Virus genome (UHGV): UHGV-0197950
Direction: 5' to 3' (one strand)
Length of the DNA stretch: 10,010 nucleotides
Source: a virus
The translations under genes were made by a program, and so were the position numbers. A model generated the notes under the pieces. That model ran no database searches, had not been told where the DNA came from, and saw only the letters and a program-made list of their open reading frames with translations. Of the stretch, positions 405 through 10,010 are shown one piece after another; position 1 is the first letter of the stretch, and every line of letters begins with the position of its first letter.

Positions 405-1643
405 ATGAGCAGCGCAATTCATAGACTTAGCGACACTCTTTTACGAAAATTAAGCGGATCACCAACCACAAAAAACGCCTTTTTTAATGACGGTGGCAAT
501 CTTAGCGTAAGACATTCCACCAGCGGCCTGTTAACCTGGTATTTCACTTACAGGGCCGGAACTGGTAGGCAGGTATCACCGGAACGTCTGAGACTGGGCA
601 ATTATCCCGATCTGAGTCTGAAAGCAGCCAGGGAAAAAGCAGCACAGTGTCGCGCCTGGCTGGCTGAGGGGAAAAATCCGCGCTATGAGCTTAATCGTGC
701 TGTACAGGATGCGTTAGCCCCCGTGACAGTTAAGGAAGCGCTCACTTACTGGCTTGAATCGTATGCAAAGGAAAAGCGCACTGACTACGAATCACTGAAA
801 AGCCGGATCAATAAACACATAATCAGCCAGATTGGCGCTTTGCCGTTGGAAAAATGCGAGCTACGGCACTGGTTGGCATGTTTTGACCAGATGGCAAAGC
901 GAAGCCCAGTATCTGCCGGATTTTTGCTACAGGTATGCAAACAGGCGCTTAAGTACTGCCGAAAACGACGATACGCAATCAGCAACGTTCTTGATGATAT
1001 GGTTGTCGGTGATGTGGGAAAAAAAGCAGAAGTGAGCGAGCGCGTACTAACAAATAAGGAGCTTGGGGAATTACTCCGCGCCCTGGATGACAAAATATTC
1101 CCGCCATACTACAGCGCCCTAATTCGCCTCCTGATTGTTTTTGGATGCCGTACCACTGAGCTAAGGCGCTCTGAGGTGCAGGAGTGGGATTTTAAAGAAA
1201 TGCTCTGGACAGTACCGAAGGAGCACAGCAAAACGAAGGTCGCCATATTCAGGCCAATACCGGAAAGCATTTTGCCGTTCGTCACGCAACTGGTGGAGCA
1301 GAACAGACACACAGGCTTATTGCTTGGTGAACTGAAAGGACAATCTTCGGTAGCAGAGTACGGAAGAACAGCGCACAGACGAATTAATCAAGCCCCCTGG
1401 ACGTTACACGATATCCGGCACACATTTACAACCATGCTGAACGATTTAGGCGTGGATCCGCATATTGTCGAGCAGCTTACAGCCCACCAGATGCCAGGGA
1501 TGCAACGAGTCTATAACCACTCCCGCTACCTTGATGCAAAACGTGATGCTCTTAATCTATGGGTAGACCGTCTCGAGCTTCTCCAGAACAATGATGAAAA
1601 AATCGTTGTTATGACCCCGCGAATTTACCCCCAAAATTCTTGA
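405..1643 (+). CDS. int: Site-specific tyrosine recombinase, P4-family integrase
   Basis: 412-aa ORF, ATG 405, TGA 1641-1643. C-terminal catalytic region has typical tyrosine-recombinase motifs (LHDIRHTFTT...HQMPGMQRVYNHSRYL) and the N-terminal region has the arm-binding/SAM-like organisation typical of P4-like integrases. First gene of the island next to a repeat-rich arm region. Confidence 0.9.
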   Translation: MSSAIHRLSDTLLRKLSGSPTTKNAFFNDGGNLSVRHSTSGLLTWYFTYRAGTGRQVSPERLRLGNYPDLSLKAAREKAAQCRAWLAEGKNPRYELNRAVQDALAPVTVKEALTYWLESYAKEKRTDYESLKSRINKHIISQIGALPLEKCELRHWLACFDQMAKRSPVSAGFLLQVCKQALKYCRKRRYAISNVLDDMVVGDVGKKAEVSERVLTNKELGELLRALDDKIFPPYYSALIRLLIVFGCRTTELRRSEVQEWDFKEMLWTVPKEHSKTKVAIFRPIPESILPFVTQLVEQNRHTGLLLGELKGQSSVAEYGRTAHRRINQAPWTLHDIRHTFTTMLNDLGVDPHIVEQLTAHQMPGMQRVYNHSRYLDAKRDALNLWVDRLELLQNNDEKIVVMTPRIYPQNS

Positions 1644-2062
1644 CAAATTACGGCTGTTTTTTCTTTAAGAGATTACAGCCGTGAATAGATCTTAGAATAT
1701 CGGGGAATATCTGCAAATATCTTCTCTTTATATGTGTCAACTATCGAAAAAAATTGAAATGTCTTCTTCTGAGTTCTTATTCTCTGTTTCTTGATTGTTC
1801 CAACACCTGATGGTTTATCTATTTGTTTTTAATGAGGTAATTCAGGTGTCATGCCAAATGACGACATTTTTTGTTGCGTCGCTTAAAAACTCGTGACACG
1901 ATTTTAAACACTAACGAGCTTCTACGAACCTTAGCGAACAAAGCCTTTAGCATGGTTGTGTTTTTAATTTAATAGGTGAAAAAGAATCTAAGTAATATCC
2001 GATCTCATATATCTACAGCTAAGAGAAAAGTTTATATACGTAATTTTTATGTAGGTTTTTGT

Positions 2063-2272
2063 ATGCGTGAAATAAATGAAGATCGCGTAATCCGTGAGGA
2101 TGAATGTCGTAAGTTAACTGGAGTGTGTCGCACTACACGCTACGAACTGGAGAAAAAAGGGAGCTTTCCGTCTCGCCGTAATCTTGGTGGGCGTTCTGTA
2201 GGTTGGCTGCTGTCCGAGGTTATGGAATGGGTTAAAAGCCGGGATCGCATTAATTCAGGTAAGGCAGCGTAA
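2063..2272 (+). CDS. alpA: AlpA-family (Phage_AlpA / MerR-type HTH) transcriptional regulator
   Basis: ~69 aa from ATG 2063: MREINEDRVIREDECRKLTGVCRTTRYELEKKGSFPSRRNLGGRSVGWLLSEVMEWVKSR, matching the AlpA pattern (TG-SR-TIY...G-FP...LG-R-VGW...EV--W). The track ORF starts at 1976 (GTG) but that N-terminal extension lies in AT-rich DNA; the start is uncertain. Stop TAA 2270-2272. Confidence 0.75.
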   Translation: MREINEDRVIREDECRKLTGVCRTTRYELEKKGSFPSRRNLGGRSVGWLLSEVMEWVKSRDRINSGKAA

Positions 2273-2299
2273 AGGGGAGCATATGACATATAAAACAAA

Positions 2300-2319
2300 G
2301 GCGACCGGGGGCGGTCGCC
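2300..2319 (-). terminator. GC-rich perfect hairpin (GGCGACCG-GGGG-CGGTCGCC); possible terminator for leftward transcription from the repressor gene, or for alpA
   Basis: 8-bp perfect stem at 2300-2307 / 2312-2319. On the minus strand it is followed by a U-rich run (CTTTGTTTTA); on the plus strand it lies 28 nt after the alpA stop with no U-tract. Confidence 0.35.
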
Positions 2320-2623
2320 AATGGATACACACTAAACTTGAACGCATCACCAACAATGCCACATTTGCGGCTGGTGGGCAATGTGATCAGTCAGATTTGG
2401 TTCGTTCCAAGGTTTGCAACGAGAGCTTTTTCCTGTGCTCTTTAAGGAATTTCTCAAGAGCAAACGAACAAGGTGCGAATCTTTCTGATTCATGTTCATG
2501 CGCTATATTTTTGCGTCGTCTCTTACGAGTTGGTGATGGTGTTTTGGTTGATTCTGTGTCGCTCATGGTGCTGTCCTGTAAAGCAATGCGCCTGCGTTCC
2601 TCAAACTATGGCGCTGATAGTGG

Positions 2624-2929
2624 CTATTCCTGCTCTTTGACCTTGCGTCGCTGGAGTTCTTCACGCGCGACGGTGACGAGTTGCCCGATCTCCTCGGCGG
2701 CTTTGACTCCGATTTTTTCCACCTGCGCTAGGGCATCGAGCGAAGAAACCAGGAGGTTTTCTCCGCTTCCTTCTGCCTGGCGGCGGGCGATTTCACCGCG
2801 CATGGCGGTTACTATGAATCCGGCGTTGCTTTCACCGTCCAGTTTTACGGATTCCATGCCTTCAATAACATCATGCGGGATCCGAGCTGTCAGTGATTGT
2901 GATTTTGCGTTTTTTGAACCTGTAGCCAT
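2624..2929 (-). CDS. Putative ribbon-helix-helix-type DNA-binding repressor (candidate island immunity/maintenance regulator)
   Basis: 101 aa from ATG (minus) at 2929 with SD GAGAGGA 6 nt upstream: MATGSKNAKSQSLTARIPHDVIEGMESVKLDGESNAGFIVTAMRGEIARRQ..., i.e. an N-terminal beta-strand/helix pattern typical of RHH (Arc/CopG-like) proteins and a charged helical C-terminus. The track start at 2944 is a TTG. Divergent from a region with two palindromic operators. Family assignment is by pattern only. Confidence 0.55.
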   Translation of the reverse strand: MATGSKNAKSQSLTARIPHDVIEGMESVKLDGESNAGFIVTAMRGEIARRQAEGSGENLLVSSLDALAQVEKIGVKAAEEIGQLVTVAREELQRRKVKEQE

Positions 2930-2950
2930 CTGTAATCCTCTCAATGAAAG

Positions 2951-3027
2951 TGTAAGACAATATACACATAAAAAGTCTTACATAAAAGCATTGACATGTA
3001 AGCCACCTATAAATAAAGTTGCTTACA
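2951..3027. promoter_or_regulatory. Divergent control region with two palindromic operators (TGTAAGAC-N16-GTCTTACA and TGTAAGC-N17-GCTTACA) overlapping a TTGACA -35 element
   Basis: Read directly: 2951-2958 tgtaagac / 2975-2982 gtcttaca; 2997-2003 tgtaagc / 3021-3027 gcttaca; TTGACA at 2991-2996 with a -10-like TAAAGT 17 nt downstream (3014-3019) reading towards the + strand gene at 3126. Confidence 0.55.
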
Positions 3028-3125
3028 CCTTGTTAATGCAAGGTGCAGAAACGACGAAACCCCGCACTGTAGGAGCAGTAACGGGGCTTCTAACCACCAA
3101 CGATAGCAAGATTATCGAGGCAGCT

Positions 3126-3329
3126 ATGAGAAATCATACCATACACCCGCAAGGGCGGGACTCGTACAACCTGAATAAATACATCTGGCGTTTTATCGCC
3201 CTGAGCACCGCACAACCGCGCGTGATTCACATCGTGGCCACCAGCGAACAGGAAGCACGCCAGCAATCCCCGGCTGGCTGCGTGATGGTATTCGCCGCCC
3301 GTATTCGTCAGGGGGTGTGCCATGCCTGA
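3126..3329 (+). CDS. Small hypothetical protein (67 aa); first gene of the rightward operon; possibly an Icd-like cell-division-inhibitor-family protein
   Basis: ATG 3126 with GAGG SD 5 nt upstream, in frame with the end of the long 2283-3329 ORF: MRNHTIHPQGRDSYNLNKYIWRFIALSTAQPRVIHIVATSEQEARQQSPAGCVMVFAARIRQGVCHA. The Icd-like label is a recollection, not verified. Confidence 0.45.
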   Translation: MRNHTIHPQGRDSYNLNKYIWRFIALSTAQPRVIHIVATSEQEARQQSPAGCVMVFAARIRQGVCHA

Positions 3330-3642
3330 TATGTCAAATTACCAGTACCTGATTAATCCGCATTTTAACTGTGAGCATGATATTGCTAAAAAGGTTTATT
3401 CCGCTGCGGATGGGGCTACTGACAATATATCAATGGCTGTTGCGTCAATTGGTAGCCTGATGTGGCATGCGTCAGAAAATGAGGACTATGACGAAAAGGC
3501 CATGCGCATTGATATGGGTAATATCGGTTTGTTACTGGCAATGCTTGGACATTTTGATATTTCGTTACGGTGCACCATTGAAAATGCCACAGATGCATTA
3601 AATGCTATAAAGAAAGCGAATACTGATTCAAATCGGGGATAA
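3322..3642 (+). CDS. Hypothetical protein (106 aa)
   Basis: ORF overlapping the upstream gene stop by 8 nt (ATG 3322; alternative ATG 3331), i.e. operon-coupled. Protein-like composition; no motif recognised. Confidence 0.55.
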   Translation: MPDMSNYQYLINPHFNCEHDIAKKVYSAADGATDNISMAVASIGSLMWHASENEDYDEKAMRIDMGNIGLLLAMLGHFDISLRCTIENATDALNAIKKANTDSNRG

Positions 3643-3648
3643 ATAATC

Positions 3649-3948
3649 ATGAGAACGTATTTATCTGGCTTGACTGCCAGCGGTTATGCACACCCCCAAA
3701 TTATCCCCGGCGCTATTTATCTGGATAAGAACGGTAACAGAGTAACGGTAAAAGAACTGATGTTTGACCGTGTGTATTTTATCCGTGATGGCTATTCATT
3801 TCTTAGTTCGCTGAACGTGGAGATCTTTATTTGCAGATTCCGGCGGGAAATCCCGACTTCCAGAAATAACCATGTGTCACGTGTGGATGTGGATAAAAAA
3901 CTACAGGAACTGAAAAACATGATTGCCGCGTGGAGAGAGCAGAAATGA
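3649..3948 (+). CDS. Hypothetical protein (99 aa)
   Basis: ATG 3649 preceded by GGGGA. Its stop TGA 3946-3948 overlaps ATG 3945 of the replication gene (ATGA coupling). No motif recognised. Confidence 0.55.
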   Translation: MRTYLSGLTASGYAHPQIIPGAIYLDKNGNRVTVKELMFDRVYFIRDGYSFLSSLNVEIFICRFRREIPTSRNNHVSRVDVDKKLQELKNMIAAWREQK

Positions 3949-5762
3949 AAAAAGCGCCAAATTTAAAACACCAGCCGCGTGACAAAATGACGGAAGTCAT
4001 CATTTTTGCGGGTAGTGATGCGTGGGCACATGCGAAGCAGTGGCAGGAACAGGACGGGCGACTGGCTGGCGATAACGTGCCACCTGTCTGGCTTGGAGAG
4101 CAACAACTTGCCGAACTGGACAACCTGCAAATCGTACCGGACGGACGCTATCGCGTGCGTCTCTACCAGGCGGGGTTATTGCGTCCGGGGCTTGTTAATA
4201 CCATCGGGCAGAAACTGGCAGCGGCAGGTGTCAGGGATGCTGATTATTACCCTGAAGGAATGCACAGCCAGAAACGGGAGAACTGGCGCGAATATCTGGA
4301 ACGTGAACGGGCAGAGCAGGCGGAAAAGAAAAAGGTAGTTGAACTGCCTGTAAAGAAAAAAGAGCGGGTAAAAGACGATAACGCTTCATCACTGGCGCTT
4401 AACCAGATGGGAGCAAGTCAACGCGGCGAAGTTCTCCTGGCACATTATGGCGGTGAACTGGCGATTCATGCTGACTCTGACACTGTTCACCATTACAACG
4501 GCGTTGTATGGGAGCCAGTACAGGATAAAGAATTACAGCGAGCTATGGCACAGATTTTCATTGATGCGGAGATCAGCTATTCGCAGAACGCCATTAAATC
4601 GGCGGTCGATACCATGAAGTTAAGTTTGCCTGTTATGGGGAATACAGCCCGTAACCTGATTGGATTCAGTAACGGGGTATTTGATACCAGAACAGGTAAT
4701 TTTCGGGAGCATAACAAAAACGACTGGTTGTTAATTGCCAGTGAATTACCTTTCAGCCCACCAGCAGAGGGGGAAACGCTGGCAACACATGCGCCGAATT
4801 TCTGGAAGTGGTTACGCCGTTCGGTGGCTGAGAATGACCGCAAGGCGGATCGCGTACTGGCTGCATTATTCATGGTGCTGGCGAACCGGTACGACTGGCA
4901 GTTATTCATTGAGGTAACAGGTCCAGGGGGAAGTGGTAAAAGCGTGATGGCGGAGATTTGCACCATGCTGGCGGGTAAGGTTAATACAGTATCAGCGAGC
5001 ATGAAGGCGCTGGAAGATGCAAGGGAACGCGCGTTAGTGGTTGGCTTTTCGCTGATTATCATGCCGGATATGACCCGCTACGCTGGTGATGGGGCGGGAA
5101 TTAAGGCTATTACAGGCGGTGACAAGGTGGCAATCGACCCAAAACATAAAGCCCCATATTCAACGCGTATCCCGGCAGTAGTGCTGGCGGTTAACAATAA
5201 CGCTATGTCATTCAGTGACCGCAGTGGGGGGATCTCGCGACGTCGGGTGATATTCAATTTTTCGGAAGTTGTACCGGAGAACGAACGCGATTCAATGCTG
5301 GCGGAAAAAATAGAAGGTGAGCTGGCGGTAGTGATTCGTCATCTGCTTACACGGTTTGCTGACCAGGACGAAGCCAGACGCCTTTTATATGAGCAGCAGA
5401 AATCAGAAGAAGCACTCGCGATAAAGCGTGAAGGTGATTCGCTGGTGGACTTCTGCGGCTATCTCATGGCGTCGGTAATGTGTGATGGCCTGTTAGTGGG
5501 TAATGCTGAAATTGTGCCATTCAGCCCGCGCAGGTATCTCTATCATGCCTATCTGGCTTATATGAAGGCACATGGGTTTGGTAAACCTGTAACACTGACG
5601 CGCTTCGGTAAAGATATGCCGGGGGCAATGGCGGAATATGGCAGGGAGTATATGAAACGGAAAACGAAGCACGGTTTGCGTTCAAACGTGACACTGACGG
5701 AGGAATCAGAAGACTGGATGCCATCATGTGTATCGGTCACTAATGACGATAGCAAAAATTAA
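3945..5762 (+). CDS. Replication initiation protein, phage/plasmid primase-helicase family (P-loop NTPase; pri-rep-like)
   Basis: 605 aa from ATG 3945 (SD GGAGAGAG 3932-3939); the track start 3930 is a GTG. Walker A motif GPGGSGKS (EVTGPGGSGKSVMAE) and a downstream hydrophobic stretch plus acidic residues (LVVGFSLIIMPD) consistent with Walker B. Size and position immediately upstream of an iteron origin match satellite/PICI pri-rep genes. Confidence 0.8.
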   Translation: MKKAPNLKHQPRDKMTEVIIFAGSDAWAHAKQWQEQDGRLAGDNVPPVWLGEQQLAELDNLQIVPDGRYRVRLYQAGLLRPGLVNTIGQKLAAAGVRDADYYPEGMHSQKRENWREYLERERAEQAEKKKVVELPVKKKERVKDDNASSLALNQMGASQRGEVLLAHYGGELAIHADSDTVHHYNGVVWEPVQDKELQRAMAQIFIDAEISYSQNAIKSAVDTMKLSLPVMGNTARNLIGFSNGVFDTRTGNFREHNKNDWLLIASELPFSPPAEGETLATHAPNFWKWLRRSVAENDRKADRVLAALFMVLANRYDWQLFIEVTGPGGSGKSVMAEICTMLAGKVNTVSASMKALEDARERALVVGFSLIIMPDMTRYAGDGAGIKAITGGDKVAIDPKHKAPYSTRIPAVVLAVNNNAMSFSDRSGGISRRRVIFNFSEVVPENERDSMLAEKIEGELAVVIRHLLTRFADQDEARRLLYEQQKSEEALAIKREGDSLVDFCGYLMASVMCDGLLVGNAEIVPFSPRRYLYHAYLAYMKAHGFGKPVTLTRFGKDMPGAMAEYGREYMKRKTKHGLRSNVTLTEESEDWMPSCVSVTNDDSKN

Positions 5763-5776
5763 ACTTATGGAATAAC

Positions 5777-6006
5777 TGTTCACCACTGTTCACCCTGTCA
5801 TAAATATTTTTTATATCAGTATATTATAGGGTGAACAGTTATTTATGAACTGTTCACCAAACTATTCACTGTTCACCTTTTTGATTGTTTATTGAGCTTC
5901 AAGGGTGAACAGTGGTGAACAGTTGGTGAATAGTTTTTGTGAAACTGTTCACCCCTTAACATTATGAATTAAAAGATAAAATATCAAAAGGTGAACAGGT
6001 GAAGGG
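5777..6006. repeat. Iteron array / putative replication origin: about 10 copies of TGTTCACC (both orientations) flanking an AT-rich stretch
   Basis: TGTTCACC at 5777, 5787, 5851, 5870, 5946; GGTGAACA at 5830, 5904, 5914, 5990; degenerate copies at 5861, 5925, 5998; AT-rich 5795-5828. Lies immediately after the replication gene stop (5762). Confidence 0.75.
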
Positions 6007-8741: not shown

Positions 8742-8810
8742 GGCGGGTCCTTTCCGGCGATCCGGTAGGCTACGGGGCGGCGACCTCGCGGTTTTTCGCT
8801 ATTTATGAGC
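8742..8810. other. Lambda-type cohesive-end site (cosQ/cosN region); cosN 12-nt GGGCGGCGACCT at 8775-8786
   Basis: Island GGCGGGTCCTTTCCGGCGATCCGGTAGGCTACG|GGGCGGCGACCT|CGCGGTTTTTCGCTATTTATGAG versus lambda right end ...CGGGTCCTTTCCGGTGATCCGACAGGTTACG and left end GGGCGGCGACCTCGCGGGTTTTCGCTATTTATGAA as recalled. Identity falls away after about +35, so the cosB region is different. About 145 bp upstream of a Nu1-like gene, as in lambda. Confidence 0.8.
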
Positions 8811-8818
8811 TTTTTCAG

Positions 8819-8833
8819 GGTGGTGGTGGTGGT
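8819..8833. repeat. (GGT)5 trinucleotide tract followed by TTTGTTGTTTG, inside the cosB-equivalent region
   Basis: Read directly: ggtggtggtggtggt at 8819-8833. Downstream are ACACCAACACACCAACC repeats (8877-8893), loosely complementary in composition. Confidence 0.6.
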
Positions 8834-8919
8834 TTTGTTGTTTGCTCTATCTCCATGAATAAAAAGGGAAAGATAACACCAACACACCAACCTGAAACCT
8901 TGACCAAGTTGGGATATTG

Positions 8920-9462
8920 ATGAAATCGCACCTGATGAACAAAAAAACCATGGCGCAAAGCTGCCGGGTAAGTGCTACAGCATTCGACAAGTGGGGAGTG
9001 ACTCCCGTTGAACGTAAAGGCCGTGAGGCGTTTTATGATGTTGCCAGCGTGATAGACAATAGGGTTAACAATGCAATTAGCCAGCTTACAAACGACAAAG
9101 GCGAGATTGATGATGATGAACTCTTACGAGTCAGGATCAGATTACTGACAGCACAGGCGGAGGCGCAGGAACTTAAAAACGAGCGCGATCGCGGTGACGT
9201 GATTGATACAGAGTTTTGCATGTACGCGCTTTCAAAACTGGCGAGTCAGATTTCATCAATCATGGACAGCCTCCCGCTTACTATGCAAAGGAGCTTCCCA
9301 CAGATGACCCCCGTCATGCTGGATGGCCTGAAAAAAGAAGTTGTCAGAGCCTGTAACGCATGCACAAAACTTGATGAAAACATCCCGCGAATGCTGTCCG
9401 ATTATCTGATGGAAACTACCGGAAATGTGCCTGATAAGTTTCAGCCGGATAAAGACAAGTAA
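8920..9462 (+). CDS. Terminase small subunit, lambda Nu1-like
   Basis: Product aligns by eye with lambda Nu1: N-terminus ...NKKTMAQSCRVSATAFDKWGVTPVERKGREAFYDVASVI versus NKKQLADIFGASIRTIQNWQEQGMPVLRGGGKGNEVLYDSAAVI; C-terminal part RLLTAQAEAQELKNERDRGDVIDTEFCMYALSKLASQISSIMDSLPLTMQRSFPQ versus RLTRAQADAQELKNARDSAEVVETAFCTFVLSRIAGEIASILDGLPLSVQRRFPE. Start ambiguous (TTG 8917, ATG 8920, ATG 8935). No TerL gene follows. Confidence 0.85.
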   Translation: MKSHLMNKKTMAQSCRVSATAFDKWGVTPVERKGREAFYDVASVIDNRVNNAISQLTNDKGEIDDDELLRVRIRLLTAQAEAQELKNERDRGDVIDTEFCMYALSKLASQISSIMDSLPLTMQRSFPQMTPVMLDGLKKEVVRACNACTKLDENIPRMLSDYLMETTGNVPDKFQPDKDK

Positions 9463-9502: not shown

Positions 9503-9698
9503 TCAGCGTTGCGCTGGTGGGCGTTATGCGTCAGTGATGAACAAAAAACAATCGAAATCGACACCGAAAAATAAAACATCAAGTCATATCAATATATTGC
9601 ATTGGTGGTGATGACGAATAAAAATGCAAAAACTAGCCTTTTTCCGCGATGCTCCCGCCCCGTGGCAGGGCACCCCACAAGGAGGACCCGCCATCACT

Positions 9699-10010
9699 AT
9701 GGAGGCCATGACCATGACCATGACCATGACCGAGACCGAAGCGCTCGGGATAATCCGCAGTATTACCGGAATCAGCCAGCAGGCTGGCGAACAGGAGGCC
9801 ACGCAGCCGGACAGCGTGATAGCCGAAAATTACGCGCGTGTTGTTGCTGAGGTGATGCGCCGTGATGGTATTGAGCTTAACGGCGTGGATATGCGCAACA
9901 TACGAACCAGAGTCCTTGAGTTGCTGGCATACCGTCGCCGTTCTCAACAACGGAGGGAGAGCGCGAAAAGTACTTACCAGTGGAAGAAGCCGGAACGACT
10001 GCGGCGGTAA
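9699..10010 (+). CDS. Hypothetical protein (~103 aa) beginning in a hexanucleotide repeat (MEAMTMTMTMTETE...)
   Basis: ORF ends TAA 10008-10010. Candidate starts are ATG 9699 (SD AAGGAGGA 9679-9686) or ATG 9714 (SD GGAGG 9701-9705). The track start 9624 lies in probable non-coding DNA. No confident family assignment. Confidence 0.5.
   Translation: MEAMTMTMTMTETEALGIIRSITGISQQAGEQEATQPDSVIAENYARVVAEVMRRDGIELNGVDMRNIRTRVLELLAYRRRSQQRRESAKSTYQWKKPERLRR
9707..9730 (+). repeat. (CATGAC)4 hexanucleotide tandem repeat, with a degenerate fifth unit to 9736, at the 5' end of the last gene
   Basis: Read directly: catgac x4 at 9707-9730 then cgagac; encodes MT dipeptide repeats and provides four in-frame ATG codons. 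Confidence 0.7.

Follow-up and report, generated by a model that had tools for sequence, protein, structure and literature searches.

An in-frame hexanucleotide repeat of variable copy number at the start of the last gene of an Escherichia coli island assigned to the EcCICFT073-type PICIs

Gene content of the island

The stretch of DNA analysed here (UHGV virus genome UHGV-0197950; 10,010 nt, hereafter designated the window) matches a segment of the E. coli 1919D62 chromosome, between cspD/yljB and clpS, at 100% identity. Its genes run in the order integrase (int; 405–1643), AlpA (1976–2272), an Icd-like protein, DUF4222, a D5-type primase (3930–5762), iteron-like repeats, SSB, a lambda E-type capsid protein, a D-type decoration protein, a second AlpA-like protein, a Nu1-type small terminase (terS) and a small ORF, and no lysis, tail or large terminase (terL) genes were found between cspD and clpS. 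The terS gene (8920–9462, plus strand) encodes a full-length, 180-aa Nu1-type protein (Pfam Phage_Nu1, E = 1e-22; phrog_57, E = 6e-52 over residues 1–174; also annotated by PGAP) and occupies the position of rppA in EcCICFT073. The late region, that is, E, D, a cos site, a TerS-like gene, a second cos site and the terminal small ORF, has the same order in CFT073 (669–3655 of the CFT073 locus, L014). As read from its sequence, the element is an EcCICFT073-type E. coli PICI rather than a lambda-like phage deprived of terL, and by its gene content it relies on the large terminase of a helper. Induction, packaging and transfer by such a helper are predicted for the island of the window; helper-driven induction, packaging and transfer have been published for EcCICFT073 only (PMC6092414, PMC6739421).

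An 18-bp att core, ATGATAGTTATCTATCAT, lies as a direct repeat at both island ends (221–238 of the window and 13296–13313 of locus L001), the second copy being about 685 nt past the small ORF. Near each end is a doubled 12-mer, GGTGTAGTCAAT GGTGTAGTTAAT (358–381 of the window; 13201–13224 of L001), which probably corresponds to the arm-site motif reported for integrases of this clade (bioRxiv 10.1101/2022.07.18.500453). Directly after the primase, 10–11-nt tandem repeats ACTGTTCACC and their complement GGTGAACAGT, in inverted orientation (5775–5798 and 5904–5935), stand at the place expected for a PICI replication origin and are candidates for it. An Rfam scan of the window gave no match. A 348-aa ORF at 2283–3329 is probably spurious, because the identical RefSeq record leaves it unannotated and places a minus-strand YlcI/YnfO gene and an Icd-like gene here.

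Two related arrangements were observed elsewhere. In strain CREC-629 (NZ_CP024815.1), the island forms a tandem array at cspD–clpS, with six matching places in the record; the locus taken from it (L004) shows two island units with two copies each of the hexanucleotide repeat described below. In an O145:H28 genome (NZ_AP024924.1; L005, 1–9262), a related satellite that ends in the same small ORF lies inside the terL of a lambdoid prophage and carries a protease-capsid fusion gene in place of terS.

The terminal gene and its product

The last gene of the island (9699–10010, plus strand; 103 aa in its longest plausible form) ends with the stop codon TAA at 10008–10010, which is also the end of the window. 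The small ORF follows terS in L006, the protease-capsid fusion gene in L005 and rppA in CFT073. The first-pass annotation had noted that it sits where lambda has gene A. The position is as described, but the gene does not stand in for gene A, since EcCICFT073 has the same gene after rppA and the element itself is a terL-less PICI. Identity with a large terminase, or a remnant of one, was also rejected, with no match in Pfam, NCBIfam or PDB.

Near the 5' end of the gene, direct reading and Tandem Repeats Finder (CCATGA × 4.3, 9706–9731, 100% matches) revealed a perfect hexanucleotide tandem repeat, (CATGAC)4, at 9707–9730 on the plus strand. The stretch 9699–9737 reads ATG GAG GCC (ATG ACC)×4 GAG ACC, and the in-frame (ATG ACC)4 encodes MTMTMTMT, in agreement with the initial description of a repeat encoding a Met-Thr ladder at this end of the ORF. 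In 1000 dinucleotide-preserving shuffles of the whole window, the longest tandem run of a non-trivial hexamer was two copies in 838 and one copy in 162, and three or more copies occurred in none, so that the repeat is real and chance is excluded. A full-text literature search found no published MLVA locus with a CATGAC unit.

The ORF, regarded as a gene from the outset, is intact in relatives and shows dN/dS values of 0.20–0.32 (ten pairs among five homologues), and thus is truly protein-coding and under purifying selection. Whereas no family had been assignable at first, the product belongs to phrog_1561 (E = 2e-50), residues 35–128 of the form of 128 aa that begins at an upstream ATG matching positions 1–93 of the 93-position profile; the profile begins at the last ATG of the array. 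The N-terminal 30 residues are variable and the C-terminal 60 strongly conserved, with an invariant basic C-terminal motif, Y-x-W-K-K-P-E-R-L-R-R, and with G48, L51, N52, D55, I59, R60, L67, Y84, W86, L92 and R93 invariant in 36 members. Our guess is that the basic C-terminal tail binds a partner, either nucleic acid or protein.

At a threshold of at least 80% coverage, at least 1058 of the 5426 complete E. coli genomes carry the body of the small ORF, up to a maximum of six copies per genome, and its annotation in these genomes is always hypothetical protein. Of the 37 hits that an exhaustive HMMER search obtained among 1.84 billion representative proteins, almost all were close relatives or fragments; a 2175-aa repeat protein, which matched via many weak stretches, was regarded as spurious. 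In a scan of species-representative genomes, the protein occurred only in Shigella flexneri and Cedecea davisae, and tblastn against 50,697 phage records gave one weak hit. The gene is almost absent from phage genomes and is specific to Escherichia PICIs. The AlphaFold2 model, which is of medium confidence (mean pLDDT, 75.7) and has a shallow alignment behind it, consists of three helices (residues 3–14, 28–46 and 53–83). A Foldseek comparison of this model with PDB and BFVD found nothing below E = 0.3, sequence and profile searches of the PDB returned only a homeobox chain (E = 0.85), and Pfam, NCBIfam and PADLOC yielded nothing significant, the sole match being BrxA at E = 0.012. Kinship with the island TerS, RppA or a DUF1441 TerS was rejected at hhalign probabilities below 1%.

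Two cos sites and the beginning of the gene

Two cos sites flank terS. The first (cos1), upstream of terS on the plus strand, is composed of GGGTCCT (8745–8751), which we take to be lambda's cosQ, a 23-nt spacer and the exact lambda cosN, GGGCGGCGACCT (8775–8786). Between cos1 and terS lie (GGT)5 at 8819–8833 and two copies of ACACCAAC at 8876–8891, which are possibly TerS binding repeats. The second site (cos2; 9539–9693, minus strand), recognised by homology to phage cos regions, is inverted and of the mEp460/cdtI lambdoid type, with GGGTCCT from 9689 to 9683, a 22-nt spacer, the cosN-like GGGCGGGAGCAT from 9660 to 9649 and a cosB-like, AT-rich flank extending to about 9539. It is 80–93% identical to a non-coding stretch located about 175 nt upstream of the DUF1441 terS in lambdoid prophages and 87–88% identical to phages phi458 and mEp460, and the GGGTCCT heptamer is conserved at the cosQ position in these relatives. 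In the genome records of both cdtI and Tritos, moreover, the first base is precisely the one that aligns with 9660, the opening G of the 12-mer. By these features, the minus strand of 9539–9693 qualifies as a lambda-type cos site, at which cutting in the island is predicted.

Both cos sites of EcCICFT073 are functional (PMC6092414). The arrangement there is the same as in the window, with cos1 forward before the TerS-like gene, cos2 inverted between that gene and the small ORF, and GGGTCCT located 22–23 nt before cosN in both sites. EcCICFT073, however, has the lambda 12-mer GGGCGGCGACCT in both cosN, whereas cos2 of the window has GGGCGGGAGCAT and a cosB-like flank of the mEp460 type. The two sites of differing type may serve two types of helper. 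A more elaborate proposal, which we consider quite unlikely, is that cos1 (lambda-type, used with the island's own TerS) and cos2 (mEp460/cdtI-type, copying the cosB of a helper) would allow packaging by two lambdoid helper families, the small gene being an accessory factor for one of them, with the repeat setting its dose or form.

A further arrangement around cos2 was seen beside phoQ in another assembly (GCA_002467655.1, contig NMMD01000097.1; L020, 4387–4920), where a terS of the DUF1441 type, a terL and a portal gene, all on the other strand, adjoin the small ORF and cos2. Either a PICI and a lambdoid prophage seem to have been joined through the cos sequence they share, or the two were put together at that place by the assembly.

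The position of cos2 bears on where the small gene begins. In-frame ATG codons occur at 9624, 9699, 9708, 9714, 9720 and 9726, and the product would have 128 aa from 9624, 103 aa from 9699, 98 aa from 9714 and 94 aa from 9726, the last being the form annotated by PGAP (9726–10010). The four in-frame ATGs counted in the first-pass annotation are those of the array; together with the ATG at 9699, which precedes the array, there are five between 9699 and the stop codon. That the real gene is the 128-aa ORF starting at 9624, with the repeat internal to it, would agree with a frame open from that codon, with the start predicted by several gene callers and with the many database proteins of 122 to 133 aa that include the extension. 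This reading is nevertheless hardly credible, because 9624–9693 falls within a stretch whose minus strand has its homologue in the non-coding cos region of lambdoid phages, because MTE is the beginning of the phrog_1561 profile and of most family members, and because only a weak Shine-Dalgarno (SD) element precedes 9624 (–6.2 kcal/mol, 13 nt away). In addition, PGAP does not call the extension, which matches a different family, phrog_35283, taken here as putative ORF calls laid over phage cos regions. As cos2 spans the extension (9624–9698) together with the AGGAGG considered below, the extension is, as far as the sequence tells, most likely non-coding.

Two SD-like elements had been proposed near the start of the gene, and both are present, AGGAGG at 9680–9685 and GGAGG at 9701–9705. 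The former, as AAGGAGG, is 12–13 nt upstream of the ATG at 9699, and it overlaps AGGACCC (9683–9689), the complement of the cosQ-like GGGTCCT of cos2. The latter (plus strand; anti-SD duplex, –9.3 kcal/mol) is located 2 nt from the ATG at 9708, 8 nt from that at 9714 and 14 nt from that at 9720, and is the positional homologue of the GAGGG or GGGGG found 4 nt before the single ATG in other family members. The annotated last ATG (9726) has no SD element in the four-copy allele, as is also the case in the other alleles with four or more copies. Since the first ATG of the array is only 2 nt from GGAGG and the last lacks an SD element in these alleles, the most likely start by SD geometry would be the second ATG of the array, at 9714, with the ATG at 9699 as an alternative candidate. 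Scanning for promoters and terminators gave nothing convincing before the small ORF.

Copy-number alleles and comparison with known systems

The comparison of copy number across related islands, proposed in the first-pass annotation, gave one to six copies, with the ORF intact and all alleles in frame; the opposite outcome envisaged there, a repeat of invariant number in an ORF absent or disrupted in most homologues, was thus not observed. Read from the DNA on identical immediate flanks, the number was one in L015 (used by its immediate flanks only, its longer flank stretches not being comparable), two in L004, L013 and L016–L022, three in L012, four in the window and L001, five in L003 and six in L002. 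The repeat sublineage is present in 97 complete genomes. For 86 of these, with about 11 uncounted, alignment spans of 249, 255, 261, 267 and 273 nt (flanks without substitutions in most rows) gave two copies in 31 genomes, three in 30, four in 19, five in 4 and six in 2. A synthetic one-copy query found no one-copy allele in the 97 complete genomes, the single case being in a draft genome.

These alleles occur on near-identical flanks. Between the six-copy L002 and the three-copy L012 there is 1 mismatch over 1407 nt upstream and there are 2 over 900 nt downstream, and the four-copy L001 and the five-copy L003 match throughout 900 nt downstream, indicating that the tract changes faster than point substitutions accumulate. 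Two islands in one genome carry three and two copies. Clonal assemblies, compared as assemblies only, share one allele ('strain 167', all two copies; E14, E16 and E32, all three; TUM18530 and TUM18780, both three), and thus the tract is not hypermutable on short timescales. NDM2 and NDM6, considered as a clonal pair with different alleles, were rejected because the strains carry different island variants. The cassette of cos2, repeat and ORF is found in islands at several integration sites, namely cspD–clpS, phoQ and two others.

At the protein level, members of the sublineage read MEA(MT)nETEAL, with n = 1–4 in the protein set and 1–6 over all; the wider family mostly begins MTE(T/A/S)E, the canonical N-terminus being MTETEAL. 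Independent duplications of MT are seen in other branches of the family (P0062 versus P0092, P0076 versus P0106), with starts such as MTMTEAE and the decayed form MTITEAE. As had been anticipated, a change in the repeat keeps the frame and alters the N-terminus, the alleles differing in N-terminal length. The expected change in the spacing between SD element and start, on the other hand, does not take place: GGAGG lies 5' of the tract, and alleles with two or more copies therefore all have it 2 nt from the first ATG and 8 nt from the second. Copy number does also change the distance from GGAGG to the last, annotated ATG.

Collectively, we consider it likely that the repeat is an in-frame microsatellite that arose from the first two codons (ATG ACC) of the conserved gene that closes an EcCICFT073-type PICI, and that it is near-neutral and no switch. 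In one sublineage, M-E-A-(MT)n-ETEAL, with n from 1 to 6, has replaced MTETEAL, units presumably being added and removed by slipped-strand mispairing. Ribosomes would mostly initiate at the second array ATG, which GGAGG precedes by 8 nt, so that the two-copy allele would yield the canonical MTETEAL product and each extra copy one more Met-Thr. In this way n – 2 Met-Thr dipeptides would be added to a poorly conserved N-terminal helix, with the SD element staying in place and without on/off control. Because the SD element of other members lies 4 nt before their single ATG, this lineage may have lost 2 nt of the SD spacer, and the first duplication may then have restored a usable start. The lack of one-copy alleles in complete genomes fits this idea of a restored start, although it is not proof. 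The repeat polymorphism probably has a small fitness effect and little consequence; the one-copy alleles missing from the 97 complete genomes could, however, reflect selection for at least two copies, in which case the repeat would be less than neutral.

The same observations could be read as tuning of translation by the repeat. After a loss of 2 nt of spacer, the first ATG would be too close to GGAGG, a duplicated ATGACC would have brought an ATG back to a distance of 8 nt, and additional copies would adjust initiation, for instance by competition among several starts or by mRNA structure nearby, the resulting dose being under selection. The series of spacings of 2, 8 and 14 nt, the GAGGG or GGGGG at 4 nt in other members, and the near lack of one-copy alleles (none in 97 complete genomes and one draft case, where a dead end of slippage should accumulate) are consistent with tuning. 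Tuning is unlikely, though it deserves consideration, since the ATG at 9699, with the strong AAGGAGG 12–13 nt upstream, could serve any allele, and since two and three copies are about equally common while four to six persist, which does not suggest a single optimum.

Very unlikely, in our estimation, is a contingency (phase-variable) locus, or a Met-Thr ladder that alters the activity or partner specificity of the protein and so creates heritable diversity among satellites. Six alleles on near-identical backgrounds, the recurrence of MT duplications in other family branches and the location of the ladder in the N-terminal third, the variable part of the family, would be expected of such a locus, and copy number indeed varies between close relatives. 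With a unit of 6 nt, however, every allele is in frame, and neither a frameshift nor an off state is possible, and hence no on/off switching. The tract is also short (2 to 6 units), clonal isolates share an allele, and the added residues precede a helix of low confidence and poor conservation.

The near-neutral microsatellite, which we favour, may be set beside what is known of the homologue in EcCICFT073, the ORF of the c1505 clone (WP_000133413.1; NC_004431.1, 1388373–1388654). It encodes a homologous 93-aa protein with the same C-terminal motif and occupies the same place, as the island's last gene after rppA/terS and directly past the inverted cos2; CFT073 has the order capsid, decoration, cos1, rppA, inverted cos2 and 93-aa ORF, followed by chromosomal phoQ. 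The homologue differs in having a single MT at its start, with an SD element 4 nt upstream, and in following rppA (144 aa), where the window has full-length terS. The primers of the c1505 clone map to 3317–3690 of L014 and enclose the whole homologue, and c1503 (rppA) was the sole one of the pBAD18 clones c1499 to c1507 to block lambda and phage 80 (PMC6739421). The marked island c1504-07::cat, in which 3104–4001 of L014, including cos2 and the homologue, is replaced, is judged from the strain list to correspond to the 'EcCICFT073 cat' that served as wild type when that study assayed transfer (PMC6739421). The non-blocking c1505 clone and the use of c1504-07::cat as the transfer standard suggest that EcCICFT073 needs the homologue neither for interfering with lambda and phage 80 nor for being transferred by them; the homologue in question is about 70% identical and belongs to another island, only two helper phages were used, and the deletion removed cos2 and two other annotated ORFs as well. 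A literature search for c1505 found nothing. In view of this dispensability, we take the small protein to be an accessory factor, outside the core packaging machinery.

As regards packaging, the island resembles SaPI-type satellites with their own small terminase, in which a full-length TerS is encoded beside the satellite's own packaging site and the large terminase of the helper is used. The island of the window differs in that it is predicted to package by cos, not pac, and the likeness concerns terS, not the small ORF. The second cos site, of a phage type unlike that of the first, hints at a way in which a single satellite could make use of helpers of two kinds.

The repeat is an in-frame VNTR in a known, uncharacterised PICI gene. 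The ORF, unassigned at first, is now placed as the conserved terminal gene of very common E. coli satellites, its body being present in about one-fifth of complete genomes. The six-allele repeat is easily typed and could mark this island lineage, and its alleles constitute a small natural experiment on the choice of start codon. Repeat loci with copy-number alleles are known as the in-frame VNTRs of E. coli and the simple-sequence contingency loci of Haemophilus and Neisseria. The tract described here shares with them a short, perfect coding repeat with alleles on otherwise identical sequence, and differs from them in that the hexamer contains the start codon, the frame is constant and the copies are few.
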